DNA of 59,937 nucleotides from a virus (taxonomy: Duplodnaviria > Caudoviricetes), in the IMG/VR virus record IMGVR_UViG_3300009512_000015, positions 1 through 59,937 of that record, one strand, 5' to 3'. This document shows positions 4,427 to 39,240 of the stretch, one piece after another. The notes beneath the pieces were generated by a model. It saw only the letters and a list, made by a program, of their open reading frames with translations. It was not told the DNA's origin and searched no databases. The translations under genes and the position numbers were made by a program. The first letter of the stretch is position 1; the number at the start of each line of letters is the position of its first letter.

Positions 4427-4445
4427 TTTAACCTCTCACGTTTTT

Positions 4446-4469
4446 AAGGGGCTCCCGAAGGAACCCCTT
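4446..4469 (-). terminator. cUUCGg-capped hairpin after RNR gene
   Basis: Minus strand AAGGGGTTCC-TTCG-GGAGCCCCTT; the following U-tract is weak. Confidence 0.65.
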
Positions 4470-4486
4470 TTTGTTTTAATTTTAAA

Positions 4487-13501: not shown

Positions 13502-13562
13502 TTTTTACTCCAAATTAAATTTAATAATATTTACGTTTAAACTCCCTTAAAAGGGTTAAATT

Positions 13563-13641
13563 AACGAGCAATTGTTTGTAAAAGTCTAGTAACCATAGCT
13601 TAATTTATGTTAAGCTGTATTTTAACTAAAAGTTGCTCGTT
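13563..13641. repeat. long imperfect intergenic inverted repeat
   Basis: AACGAGCAA (13563-13571) and TTGCTCGTT (13633-13641) enclose AGCTTAA (13597-13603) and TTAAGCT (13610-13616). Confidence 0.7.
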
Positions 13642-14414: not shown

Positions 14415-16673
14415 CTAAGAAAAGCAGTACTCAGATTCAAGTACCAGATTTATGTCAAGAGTGCCAAACTCAACTTGAGAAATATCAGCACCAATATGTT
14501 TAAAGAGTGTTGTTATAGGGTTTACGTTATAAAGTTCAACAAAAGTTTCTCTAGTGTTTTTAAACAATTCAGGCATGTCGCAAAGAAGTGTACCAAAAGA
14601 ATCATGGACTGTTGTAACAGCGCATTCAGATCTACAAACAATTAAAACAAGGTGTGCTGCATCTAAACTGTGAGTTACATTTGGCGCAGCTCCTTGCGAC
14701 TGCTTTCCTTTAGATGGCTTAACATCCTCAAAAAAGCAAATTAATAGTTGTAAAGCATTATCATAATAACCTGTAGACTTTAACTCACCTTCTTTAGGCC
14801 CGTATTGTACCCATATTTTTTTAACTTTACCTTCAGTATAATGTTGCACTACTGGAAAGTTTGTTATCGGGACTGGCCAGTTAAGAAAAAGACCATTGTT
14901 TTCAGCTGTCTTTCCTGCTTTTTCAAACAAAGTTAAAAGCTGAGAAGGTCGCCTTAAAGCATTTCGACATTCTTCATAAACACAACGACCCATATATGCA
15001 CCCCATTTATGCTCCATATAGAACAACAAGTTTATTTTATGCTTTCGAGCGTCGTCTATTTGTTGCTGACCTAGTCCAAAAGGCGTTCCACCGTAAGGCA
15101 AGGTCATTACATTTCTTTTTACTATTTTTCTTTGACTTTTATTATCAACAATTCTTGCCCAAAAGACAGGAGCTTTAAACGCTTCAAGTTCGGCTAAGTC
15201 TTCTCTAACACAACGAAGTAGTTGAAGCAGCTCATCTTTAATAACACCTGGCTCTTGCGCTTGTATTTGTTTCCTTAAATCAATTGTTGCATCAATCCAT
15301 TCTTCTAACGCAATTCTTTCTTCAGGGCTTAGACTTGCTATGTCTTCGTTAATATTTGACCATACACGTTTTGCAATAAAACCGTAAAGATCTCCAGGCA
15401 TTACGCTAGGCGTTAGATTGACATGAGGTGCTGTTATTTCATCTCTTGTTAAAGCAGCTAAGTGCTGAGAACCGTTATTAGTACCATCAATATATGCTTC
15501 TAAATGTGAAACATAGCCGTAGTTTTGAAACGGATCTCCTTTAGCGTTTACATGCTTTTCCATTTGAAGTTGCCACATTCTTAGCTTATAAAGCTCTAAG
15601 CAAGCTGCAATAAATTGCCAAGGTTTGTCTGCACGCATCCAACCAATAGACTCTTTTGGGTTTGCCGCATACTCTAAAAAAGTATCTTCATTAGCTAACG
15701 CCCATTCAAATCTTTCTAACAAAGGAATTTTGTCAGACTTTGCTCCTTCAGGGTGGCCGCACTCTCCGCCCCAGTTTGAAGCAATTGAAATAAGAAGCCA
15801 TTTAAAACCTTCAGAACCGATAGGTTTTGCATCAGAACGTAATAACATGCCTTTTGCAATATCAGAACCTTGCTCATGGAGATAAGCGGTTGCTGCGTAT
15901 TTTCGGCCTCTAAAATCATAATAATATAGATGATAAAAAGTGTCATTAAGGAACTTTGTTGCAATACTTAAAATTGCTTTAGCTTCTCTTCCTTTTGTAG
16001 CCCTTGCTTCTCTTGAATGCGCATTCCAAATATCTTGAAACGCTTCTTGCTTTGTTTTTAAAGCCCATTGCTCTAGTGAATAAACGCGCTTGTTTACACG
16101 CCACCCTACTTTTTGAGCGCGATTGACGCATTCAAAAACTAAAGGATGCGTTTCAGCAGTAAGGCTTTCTAACACCATTTTATTTTTAGTTTTTACAAGG
16201 CTTGTGCCATTTGCATGTTCACTGCTTACCCAATCAGGGTATGGCGTTTTTGATGGAAGCTTTTCAATAGATGTTGCAGGGAGGCTTTGCCAAAGCTCAA
16301 CCAGAACATCATCTTTTATTAACCTGACAATATAAGCATTATGCCCGTTCCTCCCTTGACCTAAAATGACTTCTAAAATACCTAGTTTATCAAATGAATA
16401 TAAATAAAATGCACCGATTTTAGCGGCAAGTGCCGAGTTAACAGGTAGATTCCATCTTGAAATCATTGTATGCCCTAGCGCTGAAATAAGCTCAGCAAGA
16501 TATATTGTGTTTTTGTTATAGCCCTTTTTAGGCCTTGTGTATAAGTACATTATACTAATAAGAACATCTATGTATGCTGCGACTGGATAGCGTTTTATTA
16601 CGCTAACTGGGTTTTGTGGAGCCAGCTCAGTTGACATTCGTTGGTTAAGCGACTTAATAAGAGTAGCTCTCAT
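14415..16673 (-). CDS. T7-type single-subunit DNA-directed RNA polymerase (stand-alone)
   Basis: YDFRGRKY, motif A IDGTNNGSQHL, motif B RKIVKRNVMTLPYG, APNVTHSLDAAHL, motif C VHDSFG, C-terminal YCFS (T7 ends in FAFA). Confidence 0.96.
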   Translation of the reverse strand: MRATLIKSLNQRMSTELAPQNPVSVIKRYPVAAYIDVLISIMYLYTRPKKGYNKNTIYLAELISALGHTMISRWNLPVNSALAAKIGAFYLYSFDKLGILEVILGQGRNGHNAYIVRLIKDDVLVELWQSLPATSIEKLPSKTPYPDWVSSEHANGTSLVKTKNKMVLESLTAETHPLVFECVNRAQKVGWRVNKRVYSLEQWALKTKQEAFQDIWNAHSREARATKGREAKAILSIATKFLNDTFYHLYYYDFRGRKYAATAYLHEQGSDIAKGMLLRSDAKPIGSEGFKWLLISIASNWGGECGHPEGAKSDKIPLLERFEWALANEDTFLEYAANPKESIGWMRADKPWQFIAACLELYKLRMWQLQMEKHVNAKGDPFQNYGYVSHLEAYIDGTNNGSQHLAALTRDEITAPHVNLTPSVMPGDLYGFIAKRVWSNINEDIASLSPEERIALEEWIDATIDLRKQIQAQEPGVIKDELLQLLRCVREDLAELEAFKAPVFWARIVDNKSQRKIVKRNVMTLPYGGTPFGLGQQQIDDARKHKINLLFYMEHKWGAYMGRCVYEECRNALRRPSQLLTLFEKAGKTAENNGLFLNWPVPITNFPVVQHYTEGKVKKIWVQYGPKEGELKSTGYYDNALQLLICFFEDVKPSKGKQSQGAAPNVTHSLDAAHLVLIVCRSECAVTTVHDSFGTLLCDMPELFKNTRETFVELYNVNPITTLFKHIGADISQVEFGTLDINLVLESEYCFS

Positions 16674-16681
16674 TTAGATCC

Positions 16682-16846
16682 TCATAAGGTTATAATTAAA
16701 ATAACTATTTGTATTAATAAGATAAACATTCCAACTGTAAGAATGGGGACAATAATAAAACTAAATAAAATATAAAGTGAGTCTTCCATAACACATATTA
16801 GTTCTTCATAAACATTTTCCCAAATATCTTTAAGCCATCTCTTCAT
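16682..16846 (-). CDS. 54-aa membrane protein
   Basis: Manual translation MKRWLKDIWENVYEELICVMEDSLYILFSFIIVPILTVGMFILLIQIVILIITL*; GAGGGG RBS. Confidence 0.55.
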   Translation of the reverse strand: MKRWLKDIWENVYEELICVMEDSLYILFSFIIVPILTVGMFILLIQIVILIITL

Positions 16847-16904
16847 TAAACCCCTCGCTTGTAAAAAGCTAAGAGGAAAAAAAAAATAGTTTAAAGTAAA
16901 TTGC

Positions 16905-16932
16905 GCCTCCTTTCCCCGAAGGGAAAGAAGAC
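16905..16932 (-). terminator. cUUCGg-capped hairpin
   Basis: Minus strand GTCTTCTTTCCC-TTCG-GGGAAAGGAGGC, with a T10 run about 20 nt downstream. Confidence 0.65.
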
Positions 16933-16944
16933 AATAGTTGTTGC

Positions 16945-17175
16945 TTAGCTTTGTTTTAGTTTAGATTGGATTCTTTCCAATGCTTTGTTTACCGAATCAA
17001 TTTCAACGCTTATACGTTGAGTTTCATCGTTAATCTTTTTACAGTTGTTTCGGTGATCTCTTAAAAGCTGCCTTCGCTCATAAACGCTTTTAATTGCAAC
17101 TCCTGTTAAAAGACCACCTTTGTTAAACTGTCTCCAAAAGCCTTCAGAAGACTTTTTGCCTGTCTTTTTAGGCAT
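16945..17175 (-). CDS. hypothetical basic coiled-coil protein
   Basis: ORF track; operon packing. Confidence 0.55.
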   Translation of the reverse strand: MPKKTGKKSSEGFWRQFNKGGLLTGVAIKSVYERRQLLRDHRNNCKKINDETQRISVEIDSVNKALERIQSKLKQS

Positions 17176-17180
17176 AAGTT

Positions 17181-17552
17181 TTAATCAAAATGACTAACAC
17201 ACGTATAGCGTGTTTTGTCACAACCACCAGGTGAATTAAAAAGCTTTTCACCATTTCTGACAAAGTAGCTTTCGTTTTGTGTGTTGCTTGGCGTTGTTAT
17301 TGTAGCACAAGCGCCTGTTCCATAGGTTGTACGATTCCCTTGACGGTTAGACGGACAAACCATTTTCTTTCTTGAAACTTTAACAACAGTAGTACAAGGC
17401 TTGTTACTGCCGTATATTGCTGCATTGCTACAAGTAACAGTTCCAACTTCTTGTGCAAAAGCTGTGTTTGTAACAAACAAGGCACAAACAACACATATAA
17501 AAGCTACTAGTGGATTTTTATTTTTAATATTTAAATTTTTTGAAATTTTCAT
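17181..17552 (-). CDS. putative exported Cys-rich protein
   Basis: Basic N-terminus, hydrophobic core, AFA-Q signal-peptidase-like site, six Cys in the mature part. Confidence 0.6.
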   Translation of the reverse strand: MKISKNLNIKNKNPLVAFICVVCALFVTNTAFAQEVGTVTCSNAAIYGSNKPCTTVVKVSRKKMVCPSNRQGNRTTYGTGACATITTPSNTQNESYFVRNGEKLFNSPGGCDKTRYTCVSHFD

Positions 17553-18001
17553 GTAATACGCTCCTCAATATTAATATCACAATGCCAAAGGCGTTCAGCA
17601 TCAGCTTTTATGTCTTCAATTTTTTGCCAACGATTTTTCATTCTATTAAGTACAGCTTCTGGGACATTATGCAAGCTACCAAAGTTTCCGGTAGCTTCTA
17701 TAATCTCAATTTCAGGGATATTAAGGTTTGAAACCATAGCAAAATAAGGCTTCATTTCCCAAAAAGCTGCAAACGTGTTTGAAACAATAACTGACTTTCC
17801 ATTTGATAGCGCTATACCACACATTGTTCTACACCACTGATGTGCGTGCCCTATAAGTTTTTTATCAAAATTATAACAACCCTCTGAATTTAGAAAATAC
17901 ATATCTGCTTCAAATCGCTCTGTGTTGCTGCCTCCAAGAGCACGACTCAAAGTAGACTTTCCAGAACCCGGAAGACCTCTTATTAAAGTTAACTTAAGCA
18001 T
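17549..18001 (-). CDS. P-loop kinase (AAA_33/polynucleotide-kinase-like)
   Basis: IRGLPGSGKST, EADMYF, AHQWC, VIVSNTF, HNVP. Confidence 0.85.
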   Translation of the reverse strand: MLKLTLIRGLPGSGKSTLSRALGGSNTERFEADMYFLNSEGCYNFDKKLIGHAHQWCRTMCGIALSNGKSVIVSNTFAAFWEMKPYFAMVSNLNIPEIEIIEATGNFGSLHNVPEAVLNRMKNRWQKIEDIKADAERLWHCDINIEERIT

Positions 18002-18040
18002 AATAATTCCTTTTACTACAACATTATAATAAAAGGTTTA

Positions 18041-18562
18041 TTAGCTGTTAGTTTTATAGAGATTATTATAAAAAGTCAAATGGTCGTATGAACTATAAAT
18101 CATTTTATCGAGCTTAGTTACATTTAATTTTAAGCAAGCTTCATAAGTTGAAGTGTTTTCTTTTTTAAAAAATTCACTTTCACAATGAGCTATGATACGG
18201 CGTAAAGACTCTTTATATTGAGATTTTACAATTGTTCCAAACCCTGTTTCCATTAAAGTGTCAAGCTCTTTTTCTTCTTTCTCTAACTGAGTTACTAGCT
18301 TGTTTGCGTTTCTTTTATTAACAAACTCTTCTAGATGATTAACACCAGCTGTTTTAACGTACTTAATATTTGTTAAAACTGAATTGCTTTTGCTGGCTGC
18401 TGTTGATTTTACATCCTCTGCAGTACCCATTGCTTGATCTAAATATGTCTGAAAAGACACGCCATCGAGATCAAATGTTTGCGGCGCTTTACTACAACCG
18501 CTTGAAACACCGGCAAGTACTATTACAAATGAAACACTTATTACTTTTAAAATCATGCGCAT
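18041..18562 (-). CDS. putative lipoprotein
   Basis: Basic N-terminus, hydrophobic stretch, lipobox-like SSG-C (Cys23). Confidence 0.55.
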   Translation of the reverse strand: MRMILKVISVSFVIVLAGVSSGCSKAPQTFDLDGVSFQTYLDQAMGTAEDVKSTAASKSNSVLTNIKYVKTAGVNHLEEFVNKRNANKLVTQLEKEEKELDTLMETGFGTIVKSQYKESLRRIIAHCESEFFKKENTSTYEACLKLNVTKLDKMIYSSYDHLTFYNNLYKTNS

Positions 18563-18613
18563 GATTTCTTCCTTTTCTCATTTAATATTCTGCGAAACCG
18601 TCACAGTAACGGG

Positions 18614-18790
18614 TTACTTTTTAGTTAAATTTTTAAGATCTAACTGCTTTGAATTAACTTCTTGTTTTGAAATAACTCTAGCTTTTAAGGCTTTTTTATC
18701 TTTTAATTTTTTATTTTCTTTTTTAAAACGTTTACGATTCTTTCCTCTTTTTGAGCTTTTCCAGCATCCGCCTGTTTCATCGGGGGGCAT
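18614..18790 (-). CDS. 58-aa very basic protein
   Basis: Manual translation MPPDETGGCWKSSKRGKNRKRFKKENKKLKDKKALKARVISKQEVNSKQLDLKNLTKK*; fills an otherwise empty gap. Confidence 0.5.
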   Translation of the reverse strand: MPPDETGGCWKSSKRGKNRKRFKKENKKLKDKKALKARVISKQEVNSKQLDLKNLTKK

Positions 18791-19052
18791 TGTTTAGACC
18801 CAAGCTGCTAAACTCTTCTAACACTTCTAATAAAATAAACAAAGAAAACACACCAAGGCCAATAAAAATATAAGTATTAAACGACCAATTGGCAATTGAA
18901 GCTGTAAGTACTTTGGCGATTATTGCACAAGCAGCAACCACAAAAGGCATAATCAAAAGTCTCATTAAGAGATAATGATAAACAGATTGACGCGTTCGTC
19001 TAAATCTTGCAAAAAACTTTGAGCTATTGTTTTTACTGTTTACAAGTTTCAT
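18777..19052 (-). CDS. two-TM membrane protein
   Basis: Two hydrophobic segments; GGGGT RBS. Confidence 0.6.
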   Translation of the reverse strand: MKLVNSKNNSSKFFARFRRTRQSVYHYLLMRLLIMPFVVAACAIIAKVLTASIANWSFNTYIFIGLGVFSLFILLEVLEEFSSLGLNNAPR

Positions 19053-19087
19053 TTTTAATACCCCGTTAGTTACTGTTATTTTCTATA

Positions 19088-19282
19088 TCATATAAGATAC
19101 TGCTTTTTCCGTGTTTGTTTTTTAATAGTTACTATACTATAGACGTCTCTATTGATCTTGCAAGCGTTAATTGCTTTTTTATTTGAATGTGCAAGTGTCC
19201 AAAATGTCTTGATAAAGAGATCATCTGGGCCTGATACGTATTGTACACCATACCAAGAGCTTTTCTCTATAGATTCAAGCAT
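19088..19282 (-). CDS. hypothetical protein
   Basis: ORF track; overlaps the upstream stop. Confidence 0.55.
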   Translation of the reverse strand: MLESIEKSSWYGVQYVSGPDDLFIKTFWTLAHSNKKAINACKINRDVYSIVTIKKQTRKKQYLI

Positions 19283-19460
19283 ATAAACCTGTAATTCTTT
19301 TAGTTATAACTTTTGAATTACAAGGGTCACAGCATTGTCCTCTCGCTATTGGCTCTGCATTGTTTCCTTTTATCCAGAGACCGATTGCATTTTCTTTAAT
19401 ACTCTGCTTGCAAATAACACAAGTATCGTCGGCACTAGTGCTTTCTATTAACGGCTTCAT
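19275..19460 (-). CDS. small Zn-finger-like protein
   Basis: CVIC...CCDPCN; AAGGTCTAT leader. Confidence 0.65.
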   Translation of the reverse strand: MKPLIESTSADDTCVICKQSIKENAIGLWIKGNNAEPIARGQCCDPCNSKVITKRITGLYA

Positions 19461-19475
19461 TTTTATAGACCTTTT

Positions 19476-19604
19476 TTATTTAAGAGAACCTAGGCTTTCT
19501 GTTATTGGTGATCTTAGCCTGTGATTGTTTGGTTTCCTAGTTGGCAAACTGCCTTGAATTTTCTTTCTATATCCAAACGGGTTTACTTTAGCAGGGTGTC
19601 GCAT
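19476..19604 (-). CDS. 42-aa basic peptide
   Basis: Manual translation MRHPAKVNPFGYRKKIQGSLPTRKPNNHRLRSPITESLGSLK*; AAGGA upstream. Confidence 0.45.
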   Translation of the reverse strand: MRHPAKVNPFGYRKKIQGSLPTRKPNNHRLRSPITESLGSLK

Positions 19605-19606
19605 TT

Positions 19607-19888
19607 TTATTTCCTTTTAATTTTTGAAGGGTTAAGTTCTTTCATCTCTAAATTTAAAATTTGATCTTCTGCTCTTAAAGAATAAATAAGAAGCCCTATT
19701 AAAAAGGTGCCACCCGTTATTGCAAGGCTAGCATAAACAAGAAGACCAATACTTTCGGTAGCTTCGTTAGTTGAAAAACTTATCACTAACAGTCCTGTTA
19801 TAAAGGCGGCCAAGCCAAGTCCGAAGCTAAGAGCAAGTGAGCTAAGAAGCGTTTTTGCAATAGCTATTAATATTCTTTTAGTTTTCAT
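19607..19888 (-). CDS. two-TM membrane protein
   Basis: Two long hydrophobic helices; AAGGTCTAT leader. Confidence 0.65.
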   Translation of the reverse strand: MKTKRILIAIAKTLLSSLALSFGLGLAAFITGLLVISFSTNEATESIGLLVYASLAITGGTFLIGLLIYSLRAEDQILNLEMKELNPSKIKRK

Positions 19889-19924
19889 TTAATAGACCTT
19901 TTCTAAAAGTTAATTTTGTTAGTT

Positions 19925-20335
19925 AATGGGTTTGGTTGCACGATTCTCCTCCACTGTTGCCGAAATCTGCATCGTGACTAACTCTTCATGGGGCTTTACG
20001 GATGAAGGCCGCACTAGTTGTATGCTCAACTAGTAGCTTCTGTGTATTACGCGCCCAAGCAACCCATTTCAGGGACACAGAATATTCAGGGTGTGCACGG
20101 AATGCGAAGAATTCTCAACAGCATCTCGTGACTGACTCTCTTCATGGCACCCTTACGAGTGGTATGCTTTGAGTTGCATATAAGACAATGAGAGATCCCT
20201 ATTGGGTATGCTTGCTGGTTAGGCGCACGTTCCTCCCCACCACAGGGAGTACATCTATTCACTGTCGAATTTGGTTGCACGGTGTTCCCGTGACTAACTG
20301 GACAGGCTTGTACCCGCTGTCCTTCGAGTGTTGTT
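19925..20335 (-). ncRNA. candidate structured ncRNA with three AGU(U/C)AGUCACG...CGUGCA units
   Basis: GC-rich intergenic island; three copies of a bipartite motif, each flanking a different stem-loop; additional hairpins and long-range complementarity. No RNA family recognised. Confidence 0.55.
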
Positions 20336-20339
20336 CGGT

Positions 20340-20570
20340 TTAATTTTCCCCTGTTTCACAACGCCAACAATCACAATCATACTCACTTATTCTAATCCCA
20401 TGTTTACAGAATCCAGGGCGATCCATTTTTCCTTTAAGAATCTTGTTTTCGCAGATTTCACACATAACAGCTTCACCATCAAGGCCAGTGTTACCACAAG
20501 CATAATCAAGTGTTTTATAGTCCCAGCCGCTAGGCACAGTATATGCAACGCGATTTTTACAATTACTCAT
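20340..20570 (-). CDS. small Cys-rich protein
   Basis: CG...CEIC...CKH...CDCWRC; AAGGTCTAT leader. Confidence 0.65.
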   Translation of the reverse strand: MSNCKNRVAYTVPSGWDYKTLDYACGNTGLDGEAVMCEICENKILKGKMDRPGFCKHGIRISEYDCDCWRCETGEN

Positions 20571-20581
20571 TACTATAGACC

Positions 20582-21022
20582 TTATGAAGAAAAAGAAGAA
20601 GAAAGTTTTCGGTACACATGCTTATCTCTGTCTTCACTTTTTATTCGAACTTGCAAAGCTTTGATAGCCTTTTCAGTAGAAGCTAAAACAATCTTTGACT
20701 CTGCGGTATCAGCTTTTTGAATTTTTTTACATTTATTTTTAAGTGTTGATATTTCTTTATGTATTTCTTTTTTTCTTTGCTTACCTTTACACAAAAGACC
20801 TACTGCTTCAAAAGACACAGACATATTTGGGAAAGCTTTTATGTGTTTACTATTTTGAGCCCATTTGCAATTAGGGTGTACAAGACCTTTGGCAGCGCGA
20901 GCTAGCATTTCATTGTGTTTTTTAAAACCTTGTATGTCTTTGCTATTAAACGTAGAATCTGTAATAGCTACGTGAAGTGTATTGTTTGTTTTTAAAGCAC
21001 TCTCTTTCTTTTTATTTTTCAT
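20582..21022 (-). CDS. hypothetical basic protein
   Basis: ORF track; ATGA coupling with the upstream gene. Confidence 0.6.
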   Translation of the reverse strand: MKNKKKESALKTNNTLHVAITDSTFNSKDIQGFKKHNEMLARAAKGLVHPNCKWAQNSKHIKAFPNMSVSFEAVGLLCKGKQRKKEIHKEISTLKNKCKKIQKADTAESKIVLASTEKAIKALQVRIKSEDRDKHVYRKLSSSFSS

Positions 21023-21222
21023 AAATTAGCTCTTTTTTCTAAATTGTTTATCTCTACTTTTTTACGAATTTCCCAAGCTTTCTGTTCTTCTTCAAACACA
21101 AAAGGACAATTGATTTGATTAAATTTTCTGATTAAACCAGCGCTAGCTTTTGAGTTTATGAAAGTTGTTTTCTTAAGCCTGCCTAATGCACGAAGCTGCC
21201 TTTTTCTTTTTTTAATTTCCAT
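21019..21222 (-). CDS. hypothetical basic protein
   Basis: AAGGA RBS. Confidence 0.6.
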   Translation of the reverse strand: MEIKKRKRQLRALGRLKKTTFINSKASAGLIRKFNQINCPFVFEEEQKAWEIRKKVEINNLEKRANL

Positions 21223-21265
21223 AAGAAATCCTTTATTTTTTAATTTTAGCTATGTCTCAATTTTT

Positions 21266-21283
21266 AAGGGCCCGAAGGCCCTT
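21266..21283 (-). terminator. cUUCGg-capped hairpin
   Basis: Minus strand AAGGGCC-TTCG-GGCCCTT. Confidence 0.65.
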
Positions 21284-21289
21284 TCACTA

Positions 21290-21493
21290 TTATGCTGCTT
21301 TGCTTTCATCCCAGATAACATAATAATCAAGACGATCTTCCATCTCAAAAAGTTTTGCTTTCATTACGTTTAAGCGGTATCGTAAATCATCTTTTTCTGC
21401 GCACTCAAACATTCGCTGAAGACGCTTAACGCCTAGTTCAAAGTGCAAAGTCATTGCTACAATATTATTCTCCAGCCTTTCTTCATTACTCAT
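21290..21493 (-). CDS. hypothetical protein, first gene of the small-gene block
   Basis: GAAGGT RBS. Confidence 0.6.
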   Translation of the reverse strand: MSNEERLENNIVAMTLHFELGVKRLQRMFECAEKDDLRYRLNVMKAKLFEMEDRLDYYVIWDESKAA

Positions 21494-21577
21494 AATAAAG
21501 TACCTTCTCAGAATTAATAAAACGATATCTCTTTTTGGATATCATATAAGATACCCTATTTCCCGCGTTTTAAAACG

Positions 21578-21904
21578 CTAAACAGTCCTTTGAAAATGAG
21601 GCTTGTCTTTGAACTTTCGCCAGAACATGCCAGCTTTATTTTGGTCATTTAAGCTTTCCCAATACTTTCCTAATTCACAAGGGTATATTAATTTCCCGTC
21701 TTTAGTAAAATGCAAATCTACTGCACACTTTTTAAGATGCATTGAGTTCATTGTTTTTGAGCGACCCATTGCAATATACCATTTTTGCTGCTCAACTGTC
21801 CTGAACACCTCACCAGTCCTAACTTCATAGCCTAATTCAAAAGCTTTAATCATTAGTTTAACCATGTCTCTCGTAAATAGTTCTTGATGCTCTCCTAATT
21901 TCAT
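21578..21904 (-). CDS. Endolysin, peptidase M15 family (L-Ala-D-Glu peptidase-like)
   Basis: FRT..QQ, SMHLKKCAVD (S-x-H-x6-D) and DKPHFQ Zn-binding motifs. Confidence 0.88.
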   Translation of the reverse strand: MKLGEHQELFTRDMVKLMIKAFELGYEVRTGEVFRTVEQQKWYIAMGRSKTMNSMHLKKCAVDLHFTKDGKLIYPCELGKYWESLNDQNKAGMFWRKFKDKPHFQRTV

Positions 21905-22437
21905 TGCTTTTTCTCCAACTCTTTTTGAAGCATTGCATTTTTATCTGCGCTACCTTTACTTGAACCATAAAAGAAATTAATAATTTGAGCAATAACTGTG
22001 CCAAGAAGAAATCCTAAAATTACATCAGCAAACCGAGTCTGTGTTTCGGGTATTGGGTAGAAAGTTATTCCGCCAATATAAGCGACTGCTGCAAAAGTCC
22101 AAAACAATGTGTACCAATATAAAAACCTTTTAGAGAAAATATCTTCTTGTGCTAACGCAGTAGTCTGTACATTTCGGGCTGACTGTACATCTTCTAAAAA
22201 CATTTTATCATATTCTTGTGCAAGACGGTCATCTTCTTGCTGTATTTTTAAAAGTTCTTCTTCGTGTCTCATTTGGAATTCTTCTAGCCGTACAAACTCT
22301 TCATCAGAAAGGTTTGCTTTGCCTAGATCAACGCCTGTTTTTTCTTCAATCCAATCAGTTCCAAGAGCAAGGGCAGCATTGCCAACAAGCCCTAAACCTT
22401 TCGCTAACAACGGGGCTAGTAGTAAGGGAAGTGCCAT
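21901..22437 (-). CDS. putative holin
   Basis: Coiled coil followed by two TM helices and a FFYGSSKGS-x-DK tail; translationally coupled to the endolysin; ATG 22437 has an AGAGGA RBS. Confidence 0.7.
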   Translation of the reverse strand: MALPLLLAPLLAKGLGLVGNAALALGTDWIEEKTGVDLGKANLSDEEFVRLEEFQMRHEEELLKIQQEDDRLAQEYDKMFLEDVQSARNVQTTALAQEDIFSKRFLYWYTLFWTFAAVAYIGGITFYPIPETQTRFADVILGFLLGTVIAQIINFFYGSSKGSADKNAMLQKELEKKQ

Positions 22438-22668
22438 AGTATATCCTCTTTCGGGTAGGTCTACCACCTCTACCCTCTACCTCTTTGAATAACTGCTAGT
22501 AACCTTAGTGCGTTCTGGGGTGTCTTTTAGTTACTCAGGAGGGTTAGGTATATAAAGGGGGCCATAAATGGGTTAATGTAACGGGAGCCGTTAACAAGTT
22601 TGGCTTATTTGTTTATTTTAAAAATATTAAAAACAATCGCAATAGCGTAGCTGCCTGTGAGCCGCAAA

Positions 22669-23241
22669 TTACGGCCTAGGTGCAGTATCAGGTACATCGA
22701 CTTTTTCCAAGCTTTTCAATTCTGGAAGACTCTTGCGGCCTTTTACAGAGCTGTTAGCATCTTTAGTTTCACCAATAAGCTTGTTCTTATAGTCTAAAAA
22801 CTCAGAATTCTTTTTAAAGCTTAATTCGTCTTTTGCGTTTTCAATAGTTAAAAACGGTTCTGCATAGTGTGCAGTTAATATAATGGTATCACTATACGCT
22901 ATAATTGCTCGCTTTACACCTTCTTTTGACTCAAAAGCTTTATATCCTGAAAGTCTTTCAACGCCGCGATGATAGTCCCATATTAAAATATCTCCTTTCA
23001 CAAGTATAAAAACATGGTCACTTTTATGAACACGGCCTGTTACAAAAAAATTTTTAGGCAAATTAAATTCTCTTACATAAACTCTTTCACCAAAAAAGTC
23101 ATTTACTGGGCATATTTTATCAACATCTATTTCGCTCATTTCAGATTCTAATTTTTCAATCTTTTCTAAGGTTGAAGCGTCGGGATTTGACAACAATTTA
23201 ACCAAGTCCCGACTTTTTAAAATTGATTCAGCCGTCCTCAT
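22669..23241 (-). CDS. cupin-like hypothetical protein
   Basis: YVREFNLP...TGRVHKSDHVFILVKG...H pattern resembles a double-stranded beta-helix metal site. Confidence 0.55.
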   Translation of the reverse strand: MRTAESILKSRDLVKLLSNPDASTLEKIEKLESEMSEIDVDKICPVNDFFGERVYVREFNLPKNFFVTGRVHKSDHVFILVKGDILIWDYHRGVERLSGYKAFESKEGVKRAIIAYSDTIILTAHYAEPFLTIENAKDELSFKKNSEFLDYKNKLIGETKDANSSVKGRKSLPELKSLEKVDVPDTAPRP

Positions 23242-23312
23242 TTATTTCTCCTTTTAAAAACAACTAGACTGCTAGCTTGCAAAGCTGTTTAGCTTTAATC
23301 TTTTGATTGCTA

Positions 23313-23909
23313 TTACCAGGCTATAAGAGCTAATTGTGCTTCGGTAGTTGCATCAGCAATAAGCTGTCTTAGCGCTCTACCACGCTCATGCGTTGTGGTA
23401 ATATGATTGCCTAAAGCCGTACCCATGTCTATAACTTGTGCAGCGGTAAGCGAAACAACCGAGTTATCCTCCATTGTCCAATCAATAACGAGGCTTGCGT
23501 CAATTACAGCCATTTGTACTGCACCTTGTATTCTGCGCTGGGATTCCTCGTTACATTGAACTTGATTGCCTTGCCATTCAAAAGAATTAAACTCTTGATA
23601 ATCTCGCTCCTTTTTAATTTCTAACCATTTTTCTTCTTTAGATACGGTGAGATCAAAAGTCCACTGACTAGTCAAATAATCAAAAACATAGCCTTCTCCA
23701 GGCTTCTCGCCTTTAGCTTTCACTTCGAGAGTGGTTGTGTCAACAAAATAGTGTTCATTTGTCACCAGCCCTTCTTTATGAAAAAGCGTATTCATGTCGG
23801 GCATCATTGCTTGTGATGATAGCAAAGAATCATCAGGCCCGGCTTGACAAAGAATAATAACACCGTCATTGTCATAAGTTACTAGGTTGCCTAAATTATT
23901 ATTTTCCAT
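23313..23909 (-). CDS. DUF4376-family tail-associated protein
   Basis: KWLEIKKERD...SQRRIQGAV...WTMEDNSVVSLTA...IAW. Confidence 0.75.
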   Translation of the reverse strand: MENNNLGNLVTYDNDGVIILCQAGPDDSLLSSQAMMPDMNTLFHKEGLVTNEHYFVDTTTLEVKAKGEKPGEGYVFDYLTSQWTFDLTVSKEEKWLEIKKERDYQEFNSFEWQGNQVQCNEESQRRIQGAVQMAVIDASLVIDWTMEDNSVVSLTAAQVIDMGTALGNHITTTHERGRALRQLIADATTEAQLALIAW

Positions 23910-26900
23910 TATCTTTTACTCGATATGACTGTGATAGCATTTGCGCCAAGGTACTTACTGTACGTGTCTGTTTTTACTTGAACTTCAAACATTAACCCAT
24001 TCCCTGCATTATCAGGGGGTGTCATTTGTCCTATCACAGTCATCGTGGCTGACCAGCTTCTTCTTACGCTTTGCGCTACTTCACCGCAATTACGTTGATT
24101 CATCACTCCGTTTACAAACCACGTCGCTACTACTTTCAGAAAAATACTGTGACCCTCGCCACCGCCCTCGAACCCTAAAAAGTTTGCTGTTGCCGTGATC
24201 GACAAGGCTGATGGCCTAGAGGTATAAATACCGCCTGCTTGTGGCCATGTTAGGCCCGAAGTGTAAGCGCCGCGCCAGTATCTGTTTCTTGTTATCAAGA
24301 GTGTAGGGTTAGTATTAGTATGCCCTGTTGCAGTTCCGGTTACAGGAACCGTTACCGCAAATCCTCTTATTTTAAGAGTATCTACTGCTGCAGCTTTTAT
24401 ATATGTTGTATCCCAAGGATTGGCCGTTTCTGCACCTATTGGTGTAAAAGCTAAATAACCAGAAGTGCTATCTAGCACTTGCCAATAATAGTTAACAGTA
24501 TCGAAACTGAAAGTATCAGCTTGCAAGTGCGGTCTTGTGCATACATAGGTAGTACTTGGTATTATCCAAAGATCTCCTACCGTGGTTACAAAAGGCCCGC
24601 ATGTCAAAACATGAGCCCTAGTTGGGTCATTGAAAACCTTAACTCTTGCACCTGTTGGATCATACAAGTTAGTGTAACTGACACCACCATCACTATTGTT
24701 AACACCGGACCTTAGAACTTGAAACTCGTTGCCAGCGGCGTCTGTTGAGTAAACAGCTAAACCGTAAGCTTTTAAAATACCTGTTGAACTATCATAAGCA
24801 AGCCGCTGGGTACCAGTGCCCATCAAAAAGCCCATAGCGTTATTGCTCTTCATGCCCATCCACATACCATAGCCGACTTGACTAAAGCCGGTCTTTTCCC
24901 CCATTTTAATATGGCCTGTATTCCCGAGCGTGATAATCCCTGATGTCATCTCTCCAAAGTTTGCAGTTATTGCTGACAATGAACCAACTTTTAAAGAAGC
25001 CCAGAAAGGAAGATCCCACACAATTATACCAGTATTAGGGTCAAAAGAACCCATAGTCATCCACAATCTTTGATTCACCCCAAGGTTAGGGACTTCCTTA
25101 CTAAACGCACAGATCTGACCCCAAGCGGTTAACACGGCCACGCTGCTTGGTACAGAGTTCAATCCCGCACCAGTTTGCACAAGACCGCTTCCACTAAAAA
25201 GCAAACCCTCATTTATCACTGTGTAAGCGCTAACAGTGCTTGCTCCAGCATCCCCGTCTCCACCAGTGCCACCATCAGAGGCCACGTAGCCAACAGACAC
25301 TACCGAAGCTATAACCCAGTTAAAGCTGTTTGTTAGTGTACCGACTCCACCCCTTACTAAGACCGAAGCTTCCCAAAGCGTTTGACCACCGCTTCCGACA
25401 CTTAAATCTGGCTTTTCTGTATACCAGCCTGCGTGGGTACTAGTGACAGACCCTTCTGTCCCTTCTGAGCCACTTATCTCTTCTGTAGACCAAGTCCATG
25501 TGCCGTTGCCTGTTGGCCCACTGGGTATAGTCGCAGCAAATTTCCAAACAGAAGCCTTTGCAGTTCTTACCCCAGGGAGTTCTGTTCCGTCAGAAATATA
25601 AGGAACTACTCCTCTCCAATTAATTGTTGACACGCCTGTAAAACCAAGATTTACTACAACTTCATACTCAGCTACGTACAATCTCAAGCTATTATTTGAC
25701 CCATCTTGCGTAGGAAGAGTTAAGCTCCAGTTTCTGCCTGAAGCCTGCGACAAACTTTCGTGAACGCCACTATACCAATTATATTGGCTTTGCACACTAT
25801 CCTGCGCGATTATGGTGGTCAGATTAATACCGTATCGATAAAGAAAAACAACTTGTCTTGCAACACCTAAGCTCGTATAAATTTCAGGAACTGACCAAAT
25901 GATTGTATTAGTGTTAAGTCCCGCTTTTCCATATTTGTCAGCCTGTCCCTCTGATCTCCAAATATTATAAGAAACAATGTTACCACCTGATGGAAGATTA
26001 AAACCCCAATCATATTGATAATCACCTGGCTGCTGTATCGCTCCGGTTGGAGCAACTTTCGGGCCGTCTGGAAAAGTATAACTACCGGTTCCGTCTATTG
26101 GACTTAATGGCTGAAGTCCGTTAAGCGGTTGGAACGTAAATACTTCGAGATCTTTGTATACTTGTTCGCTTGTATCAAGCTCCCAAGGGCTCCAGCTATT
26201 AACACCGTCAACCATAAGCGGCATTTCTGCAGAACTGACAGAAACTTCGGCTCGCGAAGTCATTAAGTAGTAATTATTATCTATATATGATTCGTCAACG
26301 CCAAGATTTATTAGGTGCTGTTTTGCTTCTAATTTTGTTCTAAAAGGGATGAAATAAGAGTCTAAGTTGACAGTGCCTATCGGGTGCTCCCAAAGCGTAA
26401 AATCTACAGCGTTAAAATTTATGTAATAAACCCCTGAATAAATAGGTGTTACGCCATCGGCTGCTCTTCTACTATCATGCATTCCTGCGCCTGTACGATC
26501 ATAAGTACTGTACATGTAGCAAAACAACGTAACCGGTAGATTAAAGAGCGAACCGCCAACTATTGTTGCCTGTGCGAGAGGCCATCGAGAGCCCGTATCC
26601 GGGTTGTATTCTACAGCGCGATTCCCTTCACGATCTCTAGTTATTACTGTAAAAGTGTAAACACCATCTCTTAGCTTAGGTATAGGGAATTTTAACTCAT
26701 TTAAACCACTAGTGCTTCCTAGCGCTATCCAAGGTGCTCCAACAACTGCTTTAACTTTAGTTCCTTTAAGATAAGCAATGTCATAATAGGCGCCACCATT
26801 GCCTAAAGCTGCATCCCAGTTAATAATACCGGCTACGTCAATTATACTGTCAGTATAAGCGAGGTCATATGGTGAAAAACTTAAATTCCGAGCTTGCCCA

Positions 26901-30617: not shown

Positions 30618-33600
30618 TTAATAACCACGTTCACGGTTGAATTTATTAACACCAGATGCTAAATCAGGCATCATCAGCATAATTTCTCTTTTAGTTTGTT
30701 TGCTAATGTCGCCAGTAATGTTTAGATTAAAAAGTGCATTGCTTCCAGAATCTGCTGCTTTTAATCCTTTTATTTCGCCTGTGCCTGAAGCCCCTGCAAG
30801 GCCGCCATTTACAAACTTGCGTACACTGTTGTCGTTAATAGAACGTAATAACTCTAAGTTGTTTTTAGTGCTTTTAGCGTTTATTATAAACTCACCATCT
30901 GATAACATTGCAGGTATGCTGTCAGAAGTACCTGTTCCAGGTCCACTTATAACACCACCTGTTGCAGCAGTATTCATACCATAAGCTGCAATTCCAGCTT
31001 GTACGACAGTCCCTATAATGCTGCCAGTCTCGCCTCCGCCAAACAAACTGCCTAGCATTCCGCCAAGACCTGCCAATCCTCCAGTAAAGACACCACCAAG
31101 CCCTTCTGTAGCTGCTACTTGCAAAGTGTTGCCTTTACTAATATTGTTATTAACATCGCCCATAATATCAGCAGACGCTGCTAGAGGCCCAACCAGAGCA
31201 CCTATCCCATCGTCACTCGCAGTATCTTCGTCACCGCCTAACATTCCTCCAAAAAGAGAAGTAAGACCACCGCCTGCAGCAGAACCACCGCCACAAATGT
31301 CTACACACTGCGTAGCACCACCTAGTGGGCCTTTTTCTCCCTCACTGCCTCCACCGAAGAGGCCGCCTATCATACTACTAACTCCGCTAAAAAGACCTCC
31401 GCCTTCACCAGCTTCATCAGAAGGTTTAAACATGTCGCCAATACCACTAAGAAGACCACCACCTTCACCAGCTTCATCAGAGGGTTTAAACATGTCGCCA
31501 ATACCACTAAGCAGACCGTCTCCACTAAACATGTCACCAAGACCGCTTAACATACCGCCACTGTCTTCTCCTGAGCTAAACAAACCTTCACCAAGTGTTG
31601 CCATTATTTTACCAATAGGCCCGTCTTCACCTGTTAACGGTGCTGTTAAACCTTCTACAAAACTGTCAATAACACTGTTTGTAAAAGTGTCTAGTGTGCT
31701 TTCAAGAAAATCATCAAGATCAGAATCGCCTTTAATTAGTGAGCTTAAACCTCTTTTAAAGTTTTCATTAAAATCGGCACTAAAAGTTTCACCAGCTTGC
31801 TGACCTAGCGTTACAAAGCCTCTTGCTCTCTTTTCAACACCTTCTTCCGCACCTTCAAGTAAACCATCTAATTGCTTGGTTGCTACAAATCTTAACGCAT
31901 CTTCGTCAGTATTTTCAATAACTTGGTCTAATGAGTTCATCTGTGTAAGCAGTTTAGAAAAGTCTAGCTTTTCAGCTTTAGTTAAGGAGTTAAAAATATA
32001 TTTATCAAAAGTTAAACCAAAACTTGATGCAGCACGGCTTAGGCTTGTAAAGCTGTCGTTAACTGAGCCAAAGGCTTCATTATTAACTTTAGCAGCAAGC
32101 TCTGTAGCATCAGTCTCGAGTTTTATGGCCTTGGCTGTAAAAGCCTTTTGGCCGTCTTTGTCAAGCTTAGCCTGATCTTGCACTTCTAACTCATTAAAAG
32201 CTTGAATAAGTGGTGCTACTGCGCTAATTAAGTCTTCTCTTACTTTTGGCTCAGCTTGTGTAAACTCTCTAAAAGTCATAGCTAAGTCTGGTAAAACTTC
32301 TTTAATTTCTTTAAATAAATCAGAACTTTCTACAGGTGCTCCTAAAGTAGTAGCGCCCTCCCCTCTAGCGTTTCTTAATCCTGTTGAAATAAATTCAGCA
32401 ATTTGAGAATTTCTTTCATCCATTATTCCCATCAGATTTAGTTCAGGAAGCGTATCAAAGCCAGGGCTAAACTTATTAGATTCATCTAGTAAAGCTTGAT
32501 CTTTAGCCTGACTCTCTAGTGCAGCAACAACTGCCTTTAAATCGCTAGGTTCTAATTCTCCTAAACTGTCTGGATTAAAATACTCAATCTTCAAATCTTT
32601 TTGAAGCATTTCACCTATTTGCTTTGCGTTTGCTTCAGCAAGACCTTCAAACATCTTGCTGCCAATTTCATTAGAAGGTGTTCTGTTTATAATGTCTTGT
32701 GTATTGTTGCTCTCACCCCCAGTTTCATCTGTTGTTGTAACACCACCACCAGTAAACATGGCTTGCATCTTTTCCCACATTTTTGAAAACCAACCAAAAA
32801 TCTTTTCAAATAAGTGGTCTACTTTGTCTTCGGCAGGACTATCACCGTTTGCAGTGAGTTTAGGCTCAGTACCAGCCTTAAGCCTTAAGCCTTTTCCAGA
32901 ATTTATTGATTCTAATAAAGGTCTAAATCTTCTAGACTGTTCAGCATTTACAACAAACTCGCCATTAGATAACATTGCTGGTATTTTATCATCAGTAGGG
33001 CCACCAGCTCCATATACTGAACCGCCAGTAGCAAAAGCTGGAATATCTTTATCACTACTAAAACGCAACGCTTCAAACAAATTAAAAGAAGTTGGAGTCT
33101 TATCATCTGTTTGACTCTTTATAACCGATGCTAAGGCTGATGCGCCAGGGGTTATAAGTTTTTCAACAAAAGAAGAGCCAGCACCAACAGGCATTTTTAC
33201 ATATGAATCAATAGCATTTTTCAAAAAGCCAGTATACTCACCTTTAAGCAAATTCACGCTTAAATAACCTTGATGCACGAGCAGTGCTTTCTCAGCTAAC
33301 AAGGCTTTTGCAGCAACCAGGCCTACAACGTTACCAGTACCAATTAACAGACCAGACACTGCCGCAGTTGTTGCAGCTATAGTACCTATGTCAGCCGTAG
33401 AGTCATATACTTTATCACTTAAGTTTCCAGCAAAATAGTCTTGCGATAAGCCTTTAGCACTAGCAAACTCAAGCGCAGGGTGATCAAGTGCCTCCATCTC
33501 TAAAAACTTTTGTGTATCTTTACTATCGCCAAGAGAAACATTAAAAAGACCGCCCAAAGTTCTAAGACTGTTTGATTCTCCGCCAATTGCAGATTTTAGA

Positions 33601-36600
33601 TTTTTCCATAAGTCTAAAAACAAGCCGGATTTAAGAGTTTCTGATTGACCATAATCTTTTCCAAATTGTTTACCTAAATTACTAAGAGAATCGCTTGAGA
33701 TATTAGCAGGGTCAAAATAACCACCTTCTGCAAAAGACTGTAAGCTACCTTTATTTATCTGCTCTAAAAGTTTTCTATGTTTCTTAGTAGAGTTTGCGTT
33801 AATAACAAACTCACCGTTAGATAACATTGCTGGTATTTTATCATCAGTAGGGCCACCCTTTCCAGAAACAGAGCCGCCAGTTGCAAAGTTAGTTCCGCGA
33901 GCGGCTTGCACCTCATTGCGTGATTCTAAGTCGCCATTGGCAATGATTGGAGTGATAGCAAGCGCGTTAATAGTGTCTTGAAGCTTATCAGTCAAACGCT
34001 CAAGCCATGTTCTATTAACGTCTAAAGACGCTGCTAGCTCATTTTCTTTAACAACAGCGCTATCTTGCAATTTTTCTATAAAAGCTAATTTATCAAGGAG
34101 CTCATTTATTTCAGTAACTTGCGCTTTTCTTAAATCTCCTTCTGAAGGCACTGGACGCGGTCTTCTATCACCGCCTACTTCGTCTTCATTTCGTCTACGA
34201 TTATCTTCTATAATATCGGAAACAGTTTCAGGGTCAATCTTTAGCGACTTAATCTTTTCTTTTATTTCAATTATTAACTTCTCAAGCTCTTCAGAGGTGT
34301 TGTTTAAAAAGCCGTCAAGAAATAAATCTGGCTTAAAGTTTCTTGCATTTCCAGTTTCGGGCACATCTATCGGGCTAAAAATAGCAGATGTGTTTCTGCC
34401 ACTTGTTATTTCAGACATTAAACGAGAATTAATTGTGTTTGAAAGAGTACCAGAATTTTTGTTAAGAGCTACTGATACTTGTTGAAGGCCCTCAATAATT
34501 TTTGTTTGAGCTGCAATATCAAGATTCAGCATGTTGACTTTAGCAGGACTTGCATCTTCACCGTCTTCTTTTAAACTGTCAATCTTTTCTTGAGCACCTT
34601 TTATTTCTTGCAAATTCTTTTGTAACTGAGCACGTTCAGGCGATAGCTTTTGTAACCACACTTCAGGAAGACCTTTAAAAAGCGCATATATCGCAGTGCC
34701 TGCTAGAAGAATTGCACCACCTATTAGAAAACCAACAGGGCCTATAAAGCCAGCAATTGCAAAAGCTAGTGATGTTGCAATGGAGCCTAATGCCGCGCCT
34801 AGAAATTGACCTGCAAAGGCAGTACCCATCTGTGTACCAATTTTTATCCAAGATGGTGTATCTTCAGCCATTCCTGCAGCAATTTTAGAACCTAATTGAA
34901 AACCAGCAACTCCTCCTATAATTCCTGCGCCACCTGCAACAAACTGCCTAGTACCTTCACGGAATCCATTAAAACTTTCTGCTAGCTGTTTGGTTAACAC
35001 TTCTCGCCTACTCACTAGTTTTTGACGAGCCTCAGTATCTTTTTCTGTGAGTGTAGCAGCAGCACCTGCATTCTTGGCAGCAGCCTTGTTTGCAGAAGCA
35101 GCTTTGTTAAGTGTTGCAGCGGCTTCTCTTACAGAAGGGTCTTGCGCAGCAGTCCCTGCTAGGGTACCACCGCTTAAAACGCTTCTAGTGTTTGCTCTAG
35201 CGTCTTTTGAACTAATACCACTTGCTCGCTGTACAGACGTAAGCGTTCTGACAGATTCTTTTAAAGAGTCACTCGCTCTGGTTGCTTGCTCAGAAGCTCT
35301 AACGGTTCTTTGAGCAATACCTTTATCAAAATTTGTAATAGCTCTGTTGTTTAGAGCAGCTTCGCCTCTTACAGCTAAATTACCAACAAACGTGCTAGGT
35401 GCTGCTATAAATGCTTTTGCTGCATTGAGTAGCATTGATCGGCCTGCTGAAAACAATATAGCAGTCTTAGCAACAATACCAAGAAATGGAAGTCCAAAAT
35501 TATCCATCAAGACGTTTCCACTAAAGATAAAATCTATTCCTCTTGCTAGTACACTGAGTGCGCTTTTTGCAAAGTCAAAACCAAGTTTTGTAAAGTTGTC
35601 AGTACTTGTAAGCTGATTTACAGCAAGAACCCAAGCAGTTGAAACAAGATTTACAATAGCTGCAAGAGCAAGCGGCCCTCTAAACATAAGAGCGCCAATA
35701 CCGCCAGCAACTAAAGCCAGTGAGGTTATTATCCCTTGACTTGTTTCTTGTGAAAACTCAGTAAAAAAGCGCTGCATAACATTCTGATTAGGGCCGTTGT
35801 TGTCTTGAATCTTTCCGCTTTCTCTATCAGCTTTGAGGGACTTGTAAGCAGTTCTGCCTGCTTCATACAAATCAGGGTCTGACTCTGCCATCGCTTTAAG
35901 ATCTTTATGTGAATATCTTATTCTTAATAGACTTTTACCAACAGCGCTTGAATTAAAGCCGTCGGTAACACGCTTGCGACTATCACCAGCCCAATTTTTA
36001 AAATCACCATAGTAATCTTTTGCTTTACTCCAAGAATTACTAAGAACATTTAAAATTCTATCCCAGAGGCTTAAACTTTTATCTTCATAAGAACCGTTTA
36101 CTACAGGTTGAGTAGAAGCTGAACCTTTGTTTTGAAAAGCGTTCACACCGCTTGCGACACCTAAAACACCTCCAGCTATTGCAGCGACTTTTGCTACTTT
36201 AGACAGGCTAAACAAAAGAGAGCCTGAATATAGCAAGCCTATTCCAATAGCTAACATTTTGAAGTTATCATAAACTGCAGAAGTAAAGCTGGTAACGCTG
36301 TTTAGCGGGTCGTCTAAAAGCTTGCCAAACCAGTTGGAGAGGCCATTAACAATGTCAGGAACAGGCGAATTTAAGAACAAATCTTCATAAAGTTCTTTAA
36401 AGTAGTTATAGACTTTAGTGGTAAAAGTTTTAATACTTTCCAAAGCCTTATTCATACCGCTAAATGCTTTTAGCATTGCGCGATTAATTCCCTCACCTAA
36501 CAAGTTCCAGTTAGCTGCGCTTAAGTTGAAAGCAACACCGATAAGAGCTGCGGAGAGCAAGCTGATTAAAGGAAAAACTCTAGTAAAAGCAACAAATAAC

Positions 36601-39177: not shown

Positions 39178-39195
39178 ATTTCCTGCTGATTTTAA

Positions 39196-39217: not shown

Positions 39218-39240
39218 GTTTCAAAACACTAAACTAACAA

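Follow-up and report, generated by a model that had tools for sequence, protein, structure and literature searches.

Structured non-coding RNAs of phages without an assigned function are few, and each has opened questions on how infection is controlled by RNA. In T4, the small stable RNAs known as species 1 and 2 have no assigned function, are cut from a longer transcript and are encoded with the tRNA cluster. The early region of T7 carries RNase III sites, structured intergenic RNA elements that define the ends of mRNAs, and phi29-like podophages make pRNA, an abundant, structured and early RNA of 174 nt that is a component of the packaging motor. ROOL and GOLLD are described as large and ornate structured RNAs of phages and prophages that have no assigned function and are often found near tRNA islands (PMC12286853). 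The RNA anti-CRISPRs (Racrs) are small non-coding phage RNAs that mimic host RNA (PMC10651486).

The locus discussed here lies in a viral record of 59,937 nt, which was analysed over its whole length and is called the window below. The window belongs to a T7-like podophage of an uncultured clade, and its minus strand carries all long ORFs. Polymerase identity is only 32% to the closest cultured phages, DSS3_PM1 and DSS3_VP1, and 51-63% to a large metagenomic clade with contigs of 55-90 kb. A family-A DNA polymerase gene comes next after the gene for the RNA polymerase. In the early region, with the lysis genes on one side and the polymerase gene on the other, we find an ORF-free island that is richer in GC than its surroundings. 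The reading that we tentatively favour is that this island is the gene for a stable, structured and processed non-coding RNA of about 310-340 nt, transcribed from the minus strand and belonging to a dispensable three-part early cassette. The features of this part of the genome are:

14415-16673, minus strand: 752-aa ORF, a T7-type single-subunit RNA polymerase (Pfam RNA_pol, E 1.9e-61)
19607-19888, minus strand: 93-aa predicted membrane ORF, adjoining the island downstream; putative cassette partner
19889-20339, minus strand: ORF-free, GC-richer island of 451 nt, from the stop of the 76-aa ORF to the start of the 93-aa ORF
20280-20086, minus strand: 64-aa ORF with a GTG start and the layout CxxC-18-CxxC, from the ORF list
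20340-20570, minus strand: 76-aa cysteine-rich ORF, adjoining the island upstream; putative cassette partner
ending at 21578, minus strand: tail-fibre, holin-like and endolysin genes

The early region is hypervariable. When 160 related loci are searched by tblastn, 11 of 12 small early ORFs are without a match; the endolysin matches 36 and the holin 35 of the same loci. In 3 of 60 related loci, the corresponding region is occupied by tRNA genes (2-5 each). The 76-aa ORF has one relative, 67% identical, in the protein collection and weak tblastn matches in two of the 160 loci (L148 and L243), where the matches lie at other positions of the genome. Neither flanking ORF gives a lead in PHROG, Pfam, the phage collection or the Atlas, and no family could be assigned to them. 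One DNA contig, seen at 88% likeness, joins 20602 to 19607 via 39 other letters. This suggests a strain in which exactly the island and its two flanking ORFs are missing, a finding that needs confirmation.

The accessory part of the early region is bracketed by the near-palindromic 15-mer GTATCTTATATGATA, which has exactly two copies in the window (21540-21554 and 19086-19100, minus strand), both sitting within a longer shared block. The exact 15-mer is present in 24 of 80 polymerase-related IMG/VR loci, for example at 5770 and 6604 of L125. All copies lie on the gene strand, and almost all precede the polymerase gene, from which they are no more than about 3.5 kb away in most loci. Pairs of copies separated by 0.5-1 kb are common, and even relatives of 62-65% GC have the 15-mer. 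It probably represents a conserved early operator or promoter. Elsewhere in the window, internal repeats are seen at 30834-33887 (2186-aa ORF, three copies of 135 nt) and at 56447-56794 (1237-aa ORF, five copies of 60 nt with a period of 48/96), and long poly-A runs at the very end (59801-59937) may reflect the end of the assembly or an artefact of low complexity.

The GC content is 0.45-0.48 across 19900-20399 and 0.30-0.38 on both flanks. A preliminary description of the window, made from the letters alone, had singled out this stretch as a non-coding island built from three copies of a two-part motif, and all the motifs and coordinates it quoted are present in the sequence. The first part, AGTYAGTCACG, has exactly three exact copies in 59.9 kb, each on the minus strand of the island: 20289-20299, 20127-20137 and 19973-19983. 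Allowing up to two mismatches yields 14 matches, a total at chance level with 18.5 expected; the 11 that are not exact lie elsewhere. The second part, CGTGCAACCAAA, is exact twice (20270-20281 and 19931-19942) and has a degenerate third copy, CGTGCACACCC, at 20099-20089. No 11-mer in three copies, at up to one mismatch, was held by any of 300 dinucleotide shuffles of the island. The resulting units follow each other at distances of 154-162 nt with unrelated spacers and are not tandem; collinear weak repeats with offsets of 142-173 connect the second and the third. Together with the helices that accompany them, the units are as follows:

20265-20327, minus strand: unit 1, with AGUUAGUCACG at 20299-20289, a 5-nt loop and CGUGCAACCAAA at 20281-20270
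20327-20323 with 20269-20265, minus strand: closing helix UCGAA/UUCGA of unit 1, from the fold
20322-20300, minus strand: hairpin GGACAG/CUGUCC of unit 1 (arms 20322-20317 and 20305-20300), ending exactly at AGT
20088-20194, minus strand: unit 2, a degenerate copy, with AGUCAGUCACG at 20137-20127, a 27-nt insert and CGUGCACACCC at 20099-20089
20194-20188 with 20145-20138, minus strand: helix CUCUCAU/AUGA-A-GAG of unit 2, which requires a bulge
19931-20007, minus strand: unit 3, with AGUUAGUCACG at 19983-19973, a 26-nt insert and CGUGCAACCAAA at 19942-19931
20007-19984, minus strand: hairpin CUUCAU/AUGAAG of unit 3 (arms 20007-20002 and 19989-19984), ending exactly at AGT
20051-20226, minus strand: central domain, an interrupted long-range helix that encloses unit 2, from minimum-energy folds
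20013-20034, minus strand: 8-bp hairpin ACUAGUUG/CAACUAGU, z -3.24
20232-20250, minus strand: hairpin CUCCCU/GGGGAG, z -2.42

That the island forms a structured RNA, as the preliminary description had it, is supported for some of its parts and not for the whole. Unit 1, folded over 69 nt, forms a three-way junction with a z of -2.59 (4 of 200 shuffles as good; plus strand -0.98), and the 186-nt central domain reaches -2.53 (2 of 200). Taken singly, units 2 and 3 do not surpass shuffles (z -0.61 and +0.65), and the whole molecule is not unusual, with -1.46 for 426 nt and -1.08 for 311 nt (plus strand -0.24). Local folding better than that of shuffles is seen on the minus strand only. The hairpin ACTAGTTG/CAACTAGT at about 20013-20034 that had been drawn earlier is real, and the long-range pairing of 20226-20195 with 20076-20051 that had likewise been proposed appears in the minimum-energy folds, where GCGCC, CAAGCA, ACCCA and AGGGAU of the central domain pair with GUCCCU, UGGGU, UGCUUG and GGCGC.

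A helix had also been claimed to precede each motif. In units 1 and 3 a perfect 6-bp helix ends exactly at AGT (GGACAG/CTGTCC and CTTCAT/ATGAAG); unit 2 failed the perfect-helix test. As such helices occur at a frequency of 0.011-0.026 per position, two of three copies correspond to an estimated p of about 1e-3. The conserved motifs are moreover complementary to each other: GUUAGUCACG pairs with CGUGCAAC with two bulges, as predicted in the fold of unit 1. Comparing the three units, this motif helix is without covariation, since 5 of its 8 pairs are invariant and 3 of 8 are broken in unit 2; a single compensatory pair extends the helix, G-C in unit 1 and A-U in unit 3. The proposal that structure is kept while sequence varies thus stands for the hairpins that precede the motifs, but the motif helix does not bear it out. 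A mimic of the tRNA acceptor would need a helix of 7-12 bp that leads straight into a single-stranded discriminator and CCA at a 3' end; a two-bulge helix of 7-8 bp followed by ACCA can be drawn for units 1 and 3, where unit 2 has ACACCC instead.

Could the island encode a protein? The third-position GC of its ORFs is 0.45-0.51 (0.46 in the 64-aa ORF) compared with 0.21-0.36 in 14 real genes of the phage, and no codon-position signal is seen, which bears out the non-coding character noticed at the outset. The coding alternative would be a small zinc-ribbon protein made from the 64-aa ORF, whose frame is open and contains two CxxC motifs. Searching 1.84 billion representative proteins gave two matches, the first being a junk translation of a tandem repeat and the second, P0124, a 67-aa ORF called in the same frame on another contig of 59,422 nt. 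P0124 is 69% identical over 29 residues, then continues with an unrelated middle third and a 10-residue length difference, becomes similar again, and is without the second CxxC. This alternation of matching and diverging stretches, together with the lost CxxC, argues for a homologous non-coding island with insertions and deletions and against a conserved protein; we read the P0124 call as spurious and as a sign that a relative exists on a 59-kb contig. Given also that the 64-aa ORF has no Pfam match above noise and that the RNA contigs described below start 10 nt downstream of its GTG, we find the protein scarcely credible. A conserved coding signal in this ORF, which according to the preliminary description would have spoken against an RNA, is absent. 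For the plus-strand ORF of the island no relative was found.

At the nucleotide level, blastn against 50,697 phage records gives no match to the island, and blastn and nhmmer against 80 and then 160 related loci return the window itself only. A motif search at up to one mismatch in L118-L197 yields scattered chance matches. In IMG/VR, the pattern AGTCACG-N3-33-CGTGCAMC is met at 117 loci, all by chance (the one in L011 is a coding repeat); a longer pattern is met at four loci, which represent one identical phage sequence and lie antisense to ORFs, and has one chance match in GTDB genomes. A degenerate pattern derived from the block shared with P0124 has no match, P0124 itself not being in IMG/VR.

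GC-rich, ORF-free islands of relatives were also considered as positional analogues and proved to be tRNA islands, a 63-nt element or a promoter-bearing gap. The 63-nt element (L119:6131-6193, L172:5440-5502, L122:560-622 and L254:4440-4502) is 86-87% identical in phages whose polymerases are distant. It adjoins a tRNA-Met gene in L172, its internal helix looks paired with changed letters, and it is a candidate for a small RNA motif. In L186, an ORF-free island of 413 nt (4079-4491), with 51% GC in a phage of 36% GC, ends in a promoter-like motif and is kept at 66-96% identity in L188, L175, L271, L184, L182, L180, L179, L170, L169 and L176; it corresponds to the gap 22467-22668 of the window and not to the island at 19889-20339. 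At L150:2392-2450, a hammerhead-like core (CUGAUGA, a stem, GAAAC) is recognisable by eye; it immediately follows the CCA of a tRNA-Thr gene of the phage, and Rfam does not report it at gathering scores.

Is the island present as RNA? Part of 19000-21600 is listed for 24 public runs, 13 of which are marine metatranscriptomes. Three RNA runs from three studies and one DNA run were compared over 16000-24000 at 88% likeness or more, and all three RNA runs contain a contig on the island:

19962-20270: contig of RNA run X13, 0 mismatches, mean word depth 8.2
19971-20255: contig of RNA run X9, 0 mismatches, mean word depth 18.8
19960-20199: contig of RNA run X8, 0 mismatches, mean word depth 49
19960-20270, presumably minus strand: core under the contigs of X13, X9 and X8, the minimum extent of the accumulated RNA

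An RNA expressed with the early genes had been proposed from the letters, and its core is indeed found, as contigs without a mismatch, in three independent marine metatranscriptomes, among the early genes and apparently on the gene strand. Other listed contigs of unique sequence in the same RNA runs have depths of 2.5-4, and the DNA run is flat at 1.4-5. As these data are assembled contigs, whose depth says little about expression, and as RNA libraries can contain DNA, the argument rests mainly on position. The runs were chosen for any part of 2.6 kb, so that three libraries falling on the same 12% of that stretch would not be an effect of selection. At the low-complexity letters 18692-18724, unrelated short contigs pile up at high depth in every run compared, and this signal was rejected as spurious. 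No contig covers 20272-21072 in the three RNA runs, with at most a trace up to 21339, which says nothing on the silence of the upstream genes. The listed contig of the DNA run that covers the island from 20161 upward has no differences to the window and neighbouring coding contigs of the same run have 3-12, a weak comparison in that the 3' half of the island is covered by unlisted contigs only.

The edges of the RNA contigs lie close to the units: unit 1 has just ended where they begin, and their other end falls within the insert of unit 3. The 5' edge at 20270 is a single base in from where the CGTGCAACCAAA of unit 1 ends, between AA and AUU, which we take to resemble the preference of RNase E. 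On the other side, the ends of X8 (19960) and X13 (19962) differ by no more than 2 nt, at a place where the coverage of the DNA run continues. In X9, depth drops from 18.8 in the contig that ends at 19971 to 2.8 in its neighbour, which begins at 19954. From these 3' edges it is another 27-38 nt to the ACCA of unit 3, so that a model with symmetric ends needs an under-representation of the 3' end; they may mark either the true end or the 3' loss that is usual in random-primed libraries. With regard to the strand, the X8 contig carries Illumina adapter letters at both ends, with the read-1 adapter before 19960 on the plus strand, a placement that means minus-strand RNA in most stranded kits. Together with the orientation of the genes and the strand-specific folding, this weakly hints at a minus-strand RNA.

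The RNA belongs to no described family, judging from Rfam 15, the check that the preliminary description had proposed: there are no matches over the whole window at gathering scores in a search that takes in self-cleaving ribozymes, GOLLD, ROOL, HEARO, 6S, group I introns and the marine IMES RNAs. Over 19700-20600, the only match at E <=10 is mir-981 on the plus strand, rejected with 16.3 bits against a gathering score of 51. ARAGORN detects no tRNA or tmRNA gene in the window, also at thresholds of 95% and 85%, and Rfam no tRNA at E <=10; the single 91-nt call that ARAGORN makes at 75% is implausible and overlaps the upstream ORF. A search of the literature on marine phage non-coding RNAs turned up nothing specific among the entries listed.

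On the gene strand within the island, the scan for sigma-70-like promoters and intrinsic terminators found none, other promoter types being outside its scope. Four exact copies of CGTTnnnTTAACCC occur on the minus strand of the window, all intergenic (13553-13566, 22570-22583, 43089-43102 and 59462-59475) and none in the island. Five matches to it are observed, a count that 0 of 100 shuffles reach, and the motif recurs in the relatives L186, L132, L134, L142 and L192. We take CGTTnnnTTAACCC to resemble the T3 promoter, and in this clade the phage RNA polymerase probably recognises it as its promoter. Two GC-rich hairpins with a UUCG loop followed by U/A-rich letters, GGGCCUUCGGGCCC at about 21255-21285 and GGGGGCCUUCGGGCUCCC at about 39190-39220, lie on the minus strand in short intergenic gaps and look like terminators.

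How else might the island be read? It could be a cis-acting region for the processing or stability of an early polycistronic mRNA, in which the units are nuclease sites or 3'-protecting hairpins and the accumulated fragment is a functionless by-product. Such a region would be intergenic, on the gene strand and early, as the island is; it would lack a promoter and terminator of its own and have units at both edges of the fragment, and nuclease recognition sites would be expected to keep the base of the helix while their apical inserts vary. We nevertheless judge it unlikely, because three sites and some 300 nt of extra structured RNA exceed what the separation of two genes needs, because the motif helix of unit 1, with its 7-9 bp, is too short for RNase III, and because the apparent strain without the island and both flanking ORFs fits a cassette and not the architecture of an mRNA. 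Alternatively, a unit of about 155 nt may have been duplicated in tandem and then decayed, leaving motifs that are shared by descent and an RNA that persists since it is GC-rich and folded. The collinear weak repeats between the second and third units, the motif helix without covariation, the degenerate state of unit 2 and the hypervariable surroundings all agree with a transcribed relic, and the three units may be merely diverged duplicates. However, both motifs are exact in units 1 and 3 while the intervening sequence has diverged beyond alignment, which argues for selection on the motifs. The DNA contig from 20161 upward, free of differences where its coding neighbours are not, speaks weakly against a relic, which on balance appears rather improbable.

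Two further possibilities draw on the layout of the units. The RNA could mimic a host defence RNA, either as a solitary CRISPR-repeat-like RNA anti-CRISPR or as an antitoxin-like RNA, and titrate a nuclease of the Cas6 or ToxN type. The 30 nt of unit 1 are arranged like a Cas6-type repeat, with 7 nt before and 8 nt after a hairpin of 5 bp whose loop has 5 nt, and the 5' edge of the RNA contig between AA and AU corresponds in type to a ToxN site. Phage RNA anti-CRISPRs that mimic repeats have been described (PMC10651486), and an accessory early cassette would be a suitable location. Still, units 2 and 3 have hairpin inserts of 26-27 nt, the units are 154-162 nt apart where a type III antitoxin (ToxI-like) would have tandem repeats of about 34-45 nt immediately before the gene of an endoribonuclease toxin, no toxin-like nuclease gene adjoins, and the downstream ORF is a predicted membrane protein without a family. 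Genomes of 185,579 species, one per species, contain no array with this repeat when exact matches are considered (one chance match). A defence mimic is, in our opinion, quite improbable. The same applies, more firmly, to an element acting as DNA, be it three early promoters, sites for a regulator, a replication origin or a genome terminus. Three non-coding repeats at 154-162 bp near the start of the early region recall the layout of the T7 promoters A1-A3, and an origin in single-stranded DNA had been offered by the preliminary description as an alternative. Against tandem promoters of this type, the minus strand of the island has no sigma-70-like site, and the gap between the half-motifs ranges from 5 to 27 nt, where a two-box promoter would have two hexamers at a fixed distance. 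The promoter-like motif CGTTnnnTTAACCC is absent as well, the DNA depth is not raised at the island, which speaks against a collapsed terminal repeat, and the RNA contigs stop before the end of unit 3 and do not run on from each unit. This makes a DNA-level role very improbable.

For a gene encoding a processed non-coding RNA, the reading we favour, the following picture can be drawn. The RNA would run from about 20270 to a point between 19960 and about 19933 and be made in the early region. A longer primary transcript is probable, which might be cut between ACCAA and AUU, in a single-stranded stretch just 3' of unit 1, and the RNA would end within unit 3 or shortly beyond it. Units 1 and 3 would share one design: a hairpin, an irregular GUUAGUCACG/CGUGCAAC helix of 7-9 bp with one A and one U bulged, and a single-stranded ACCAAA tail. 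They may serve as end-defining, nuclease-blocking and probably protein-binding modules. Unit 2 would be a decayed copy inside the central domain that the long-range helix closes. The putative cassette would comprise the 76-aa cysteine-rich protein, the RNA and the 93-aa membrane protein and be dispensable as such.

The RNA would presumably act in trans during early infection, and our guess is that it is a decoy, diverting an RNA-binding factor of the host that recognises ends made of a helix plus ACCA. A more specific version, which we consider distinctly improbable, is a new kind of counter-defence decoy, a stable early RNA with two or three such modules that imitate tRNA acceptor ends and soak up a host factor acting on the tRNA 3' end. 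Examples of such a factor would be a defence nuclease directed at tRNAs and the machinery for CCA addition or repair, and the zinc-finger-like and membrane proteins next door would be the partners of the RNA. In a still bolder variant, units 1 and 3 would be a new self-cleaving motif by which the RNA is excised. Accessory early cassettes are the usual place of anti-defence functions, and if the helix-plus-ACCA modules are functional, they would offer a new way for a phage to engage the RNA machinery of its host. The candidate RNA is small enough to be synthesised and appears to have been detected in ocean RNA surveys across several studies and years. GC-rich, ORF-free islands in AT-rich phage genomes can also be checked quickly against public metatranscriptomes.

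How does the island compare with the systems introduced at the beginning? It is unrelated to phi29 pRNA in sequence and structure, and the phage of the window is T7-like. From the RNase III sites of T7 it differs in having three units in one gap, about 300 nt of extra RNA, shorter helices and a fragment that accumulates. There is no sequence or family link to T4 species 1 and 2, which lie inside a tRNA operon, unlike the island RNA. With the Racrs it has the repeat-like layout of unit 1 in common, but no matching CRISPR repeat is known and units 2 and 3 do not fit. ROOL and GOLLD are longer, with more than 500-800 nt as opposed to about 310-340 nt, neither of their Rfam models matches the island, and the window is without a tRNA gene. 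Although the island RNA belongs to neither family, phage structured RNAs such as ROOL and GOLLD are the nearest known kind: like them, it would be a structured non-coding RNA encoded by a phage, and 3 of 60 related loci carry tRNA genes in the same early region.
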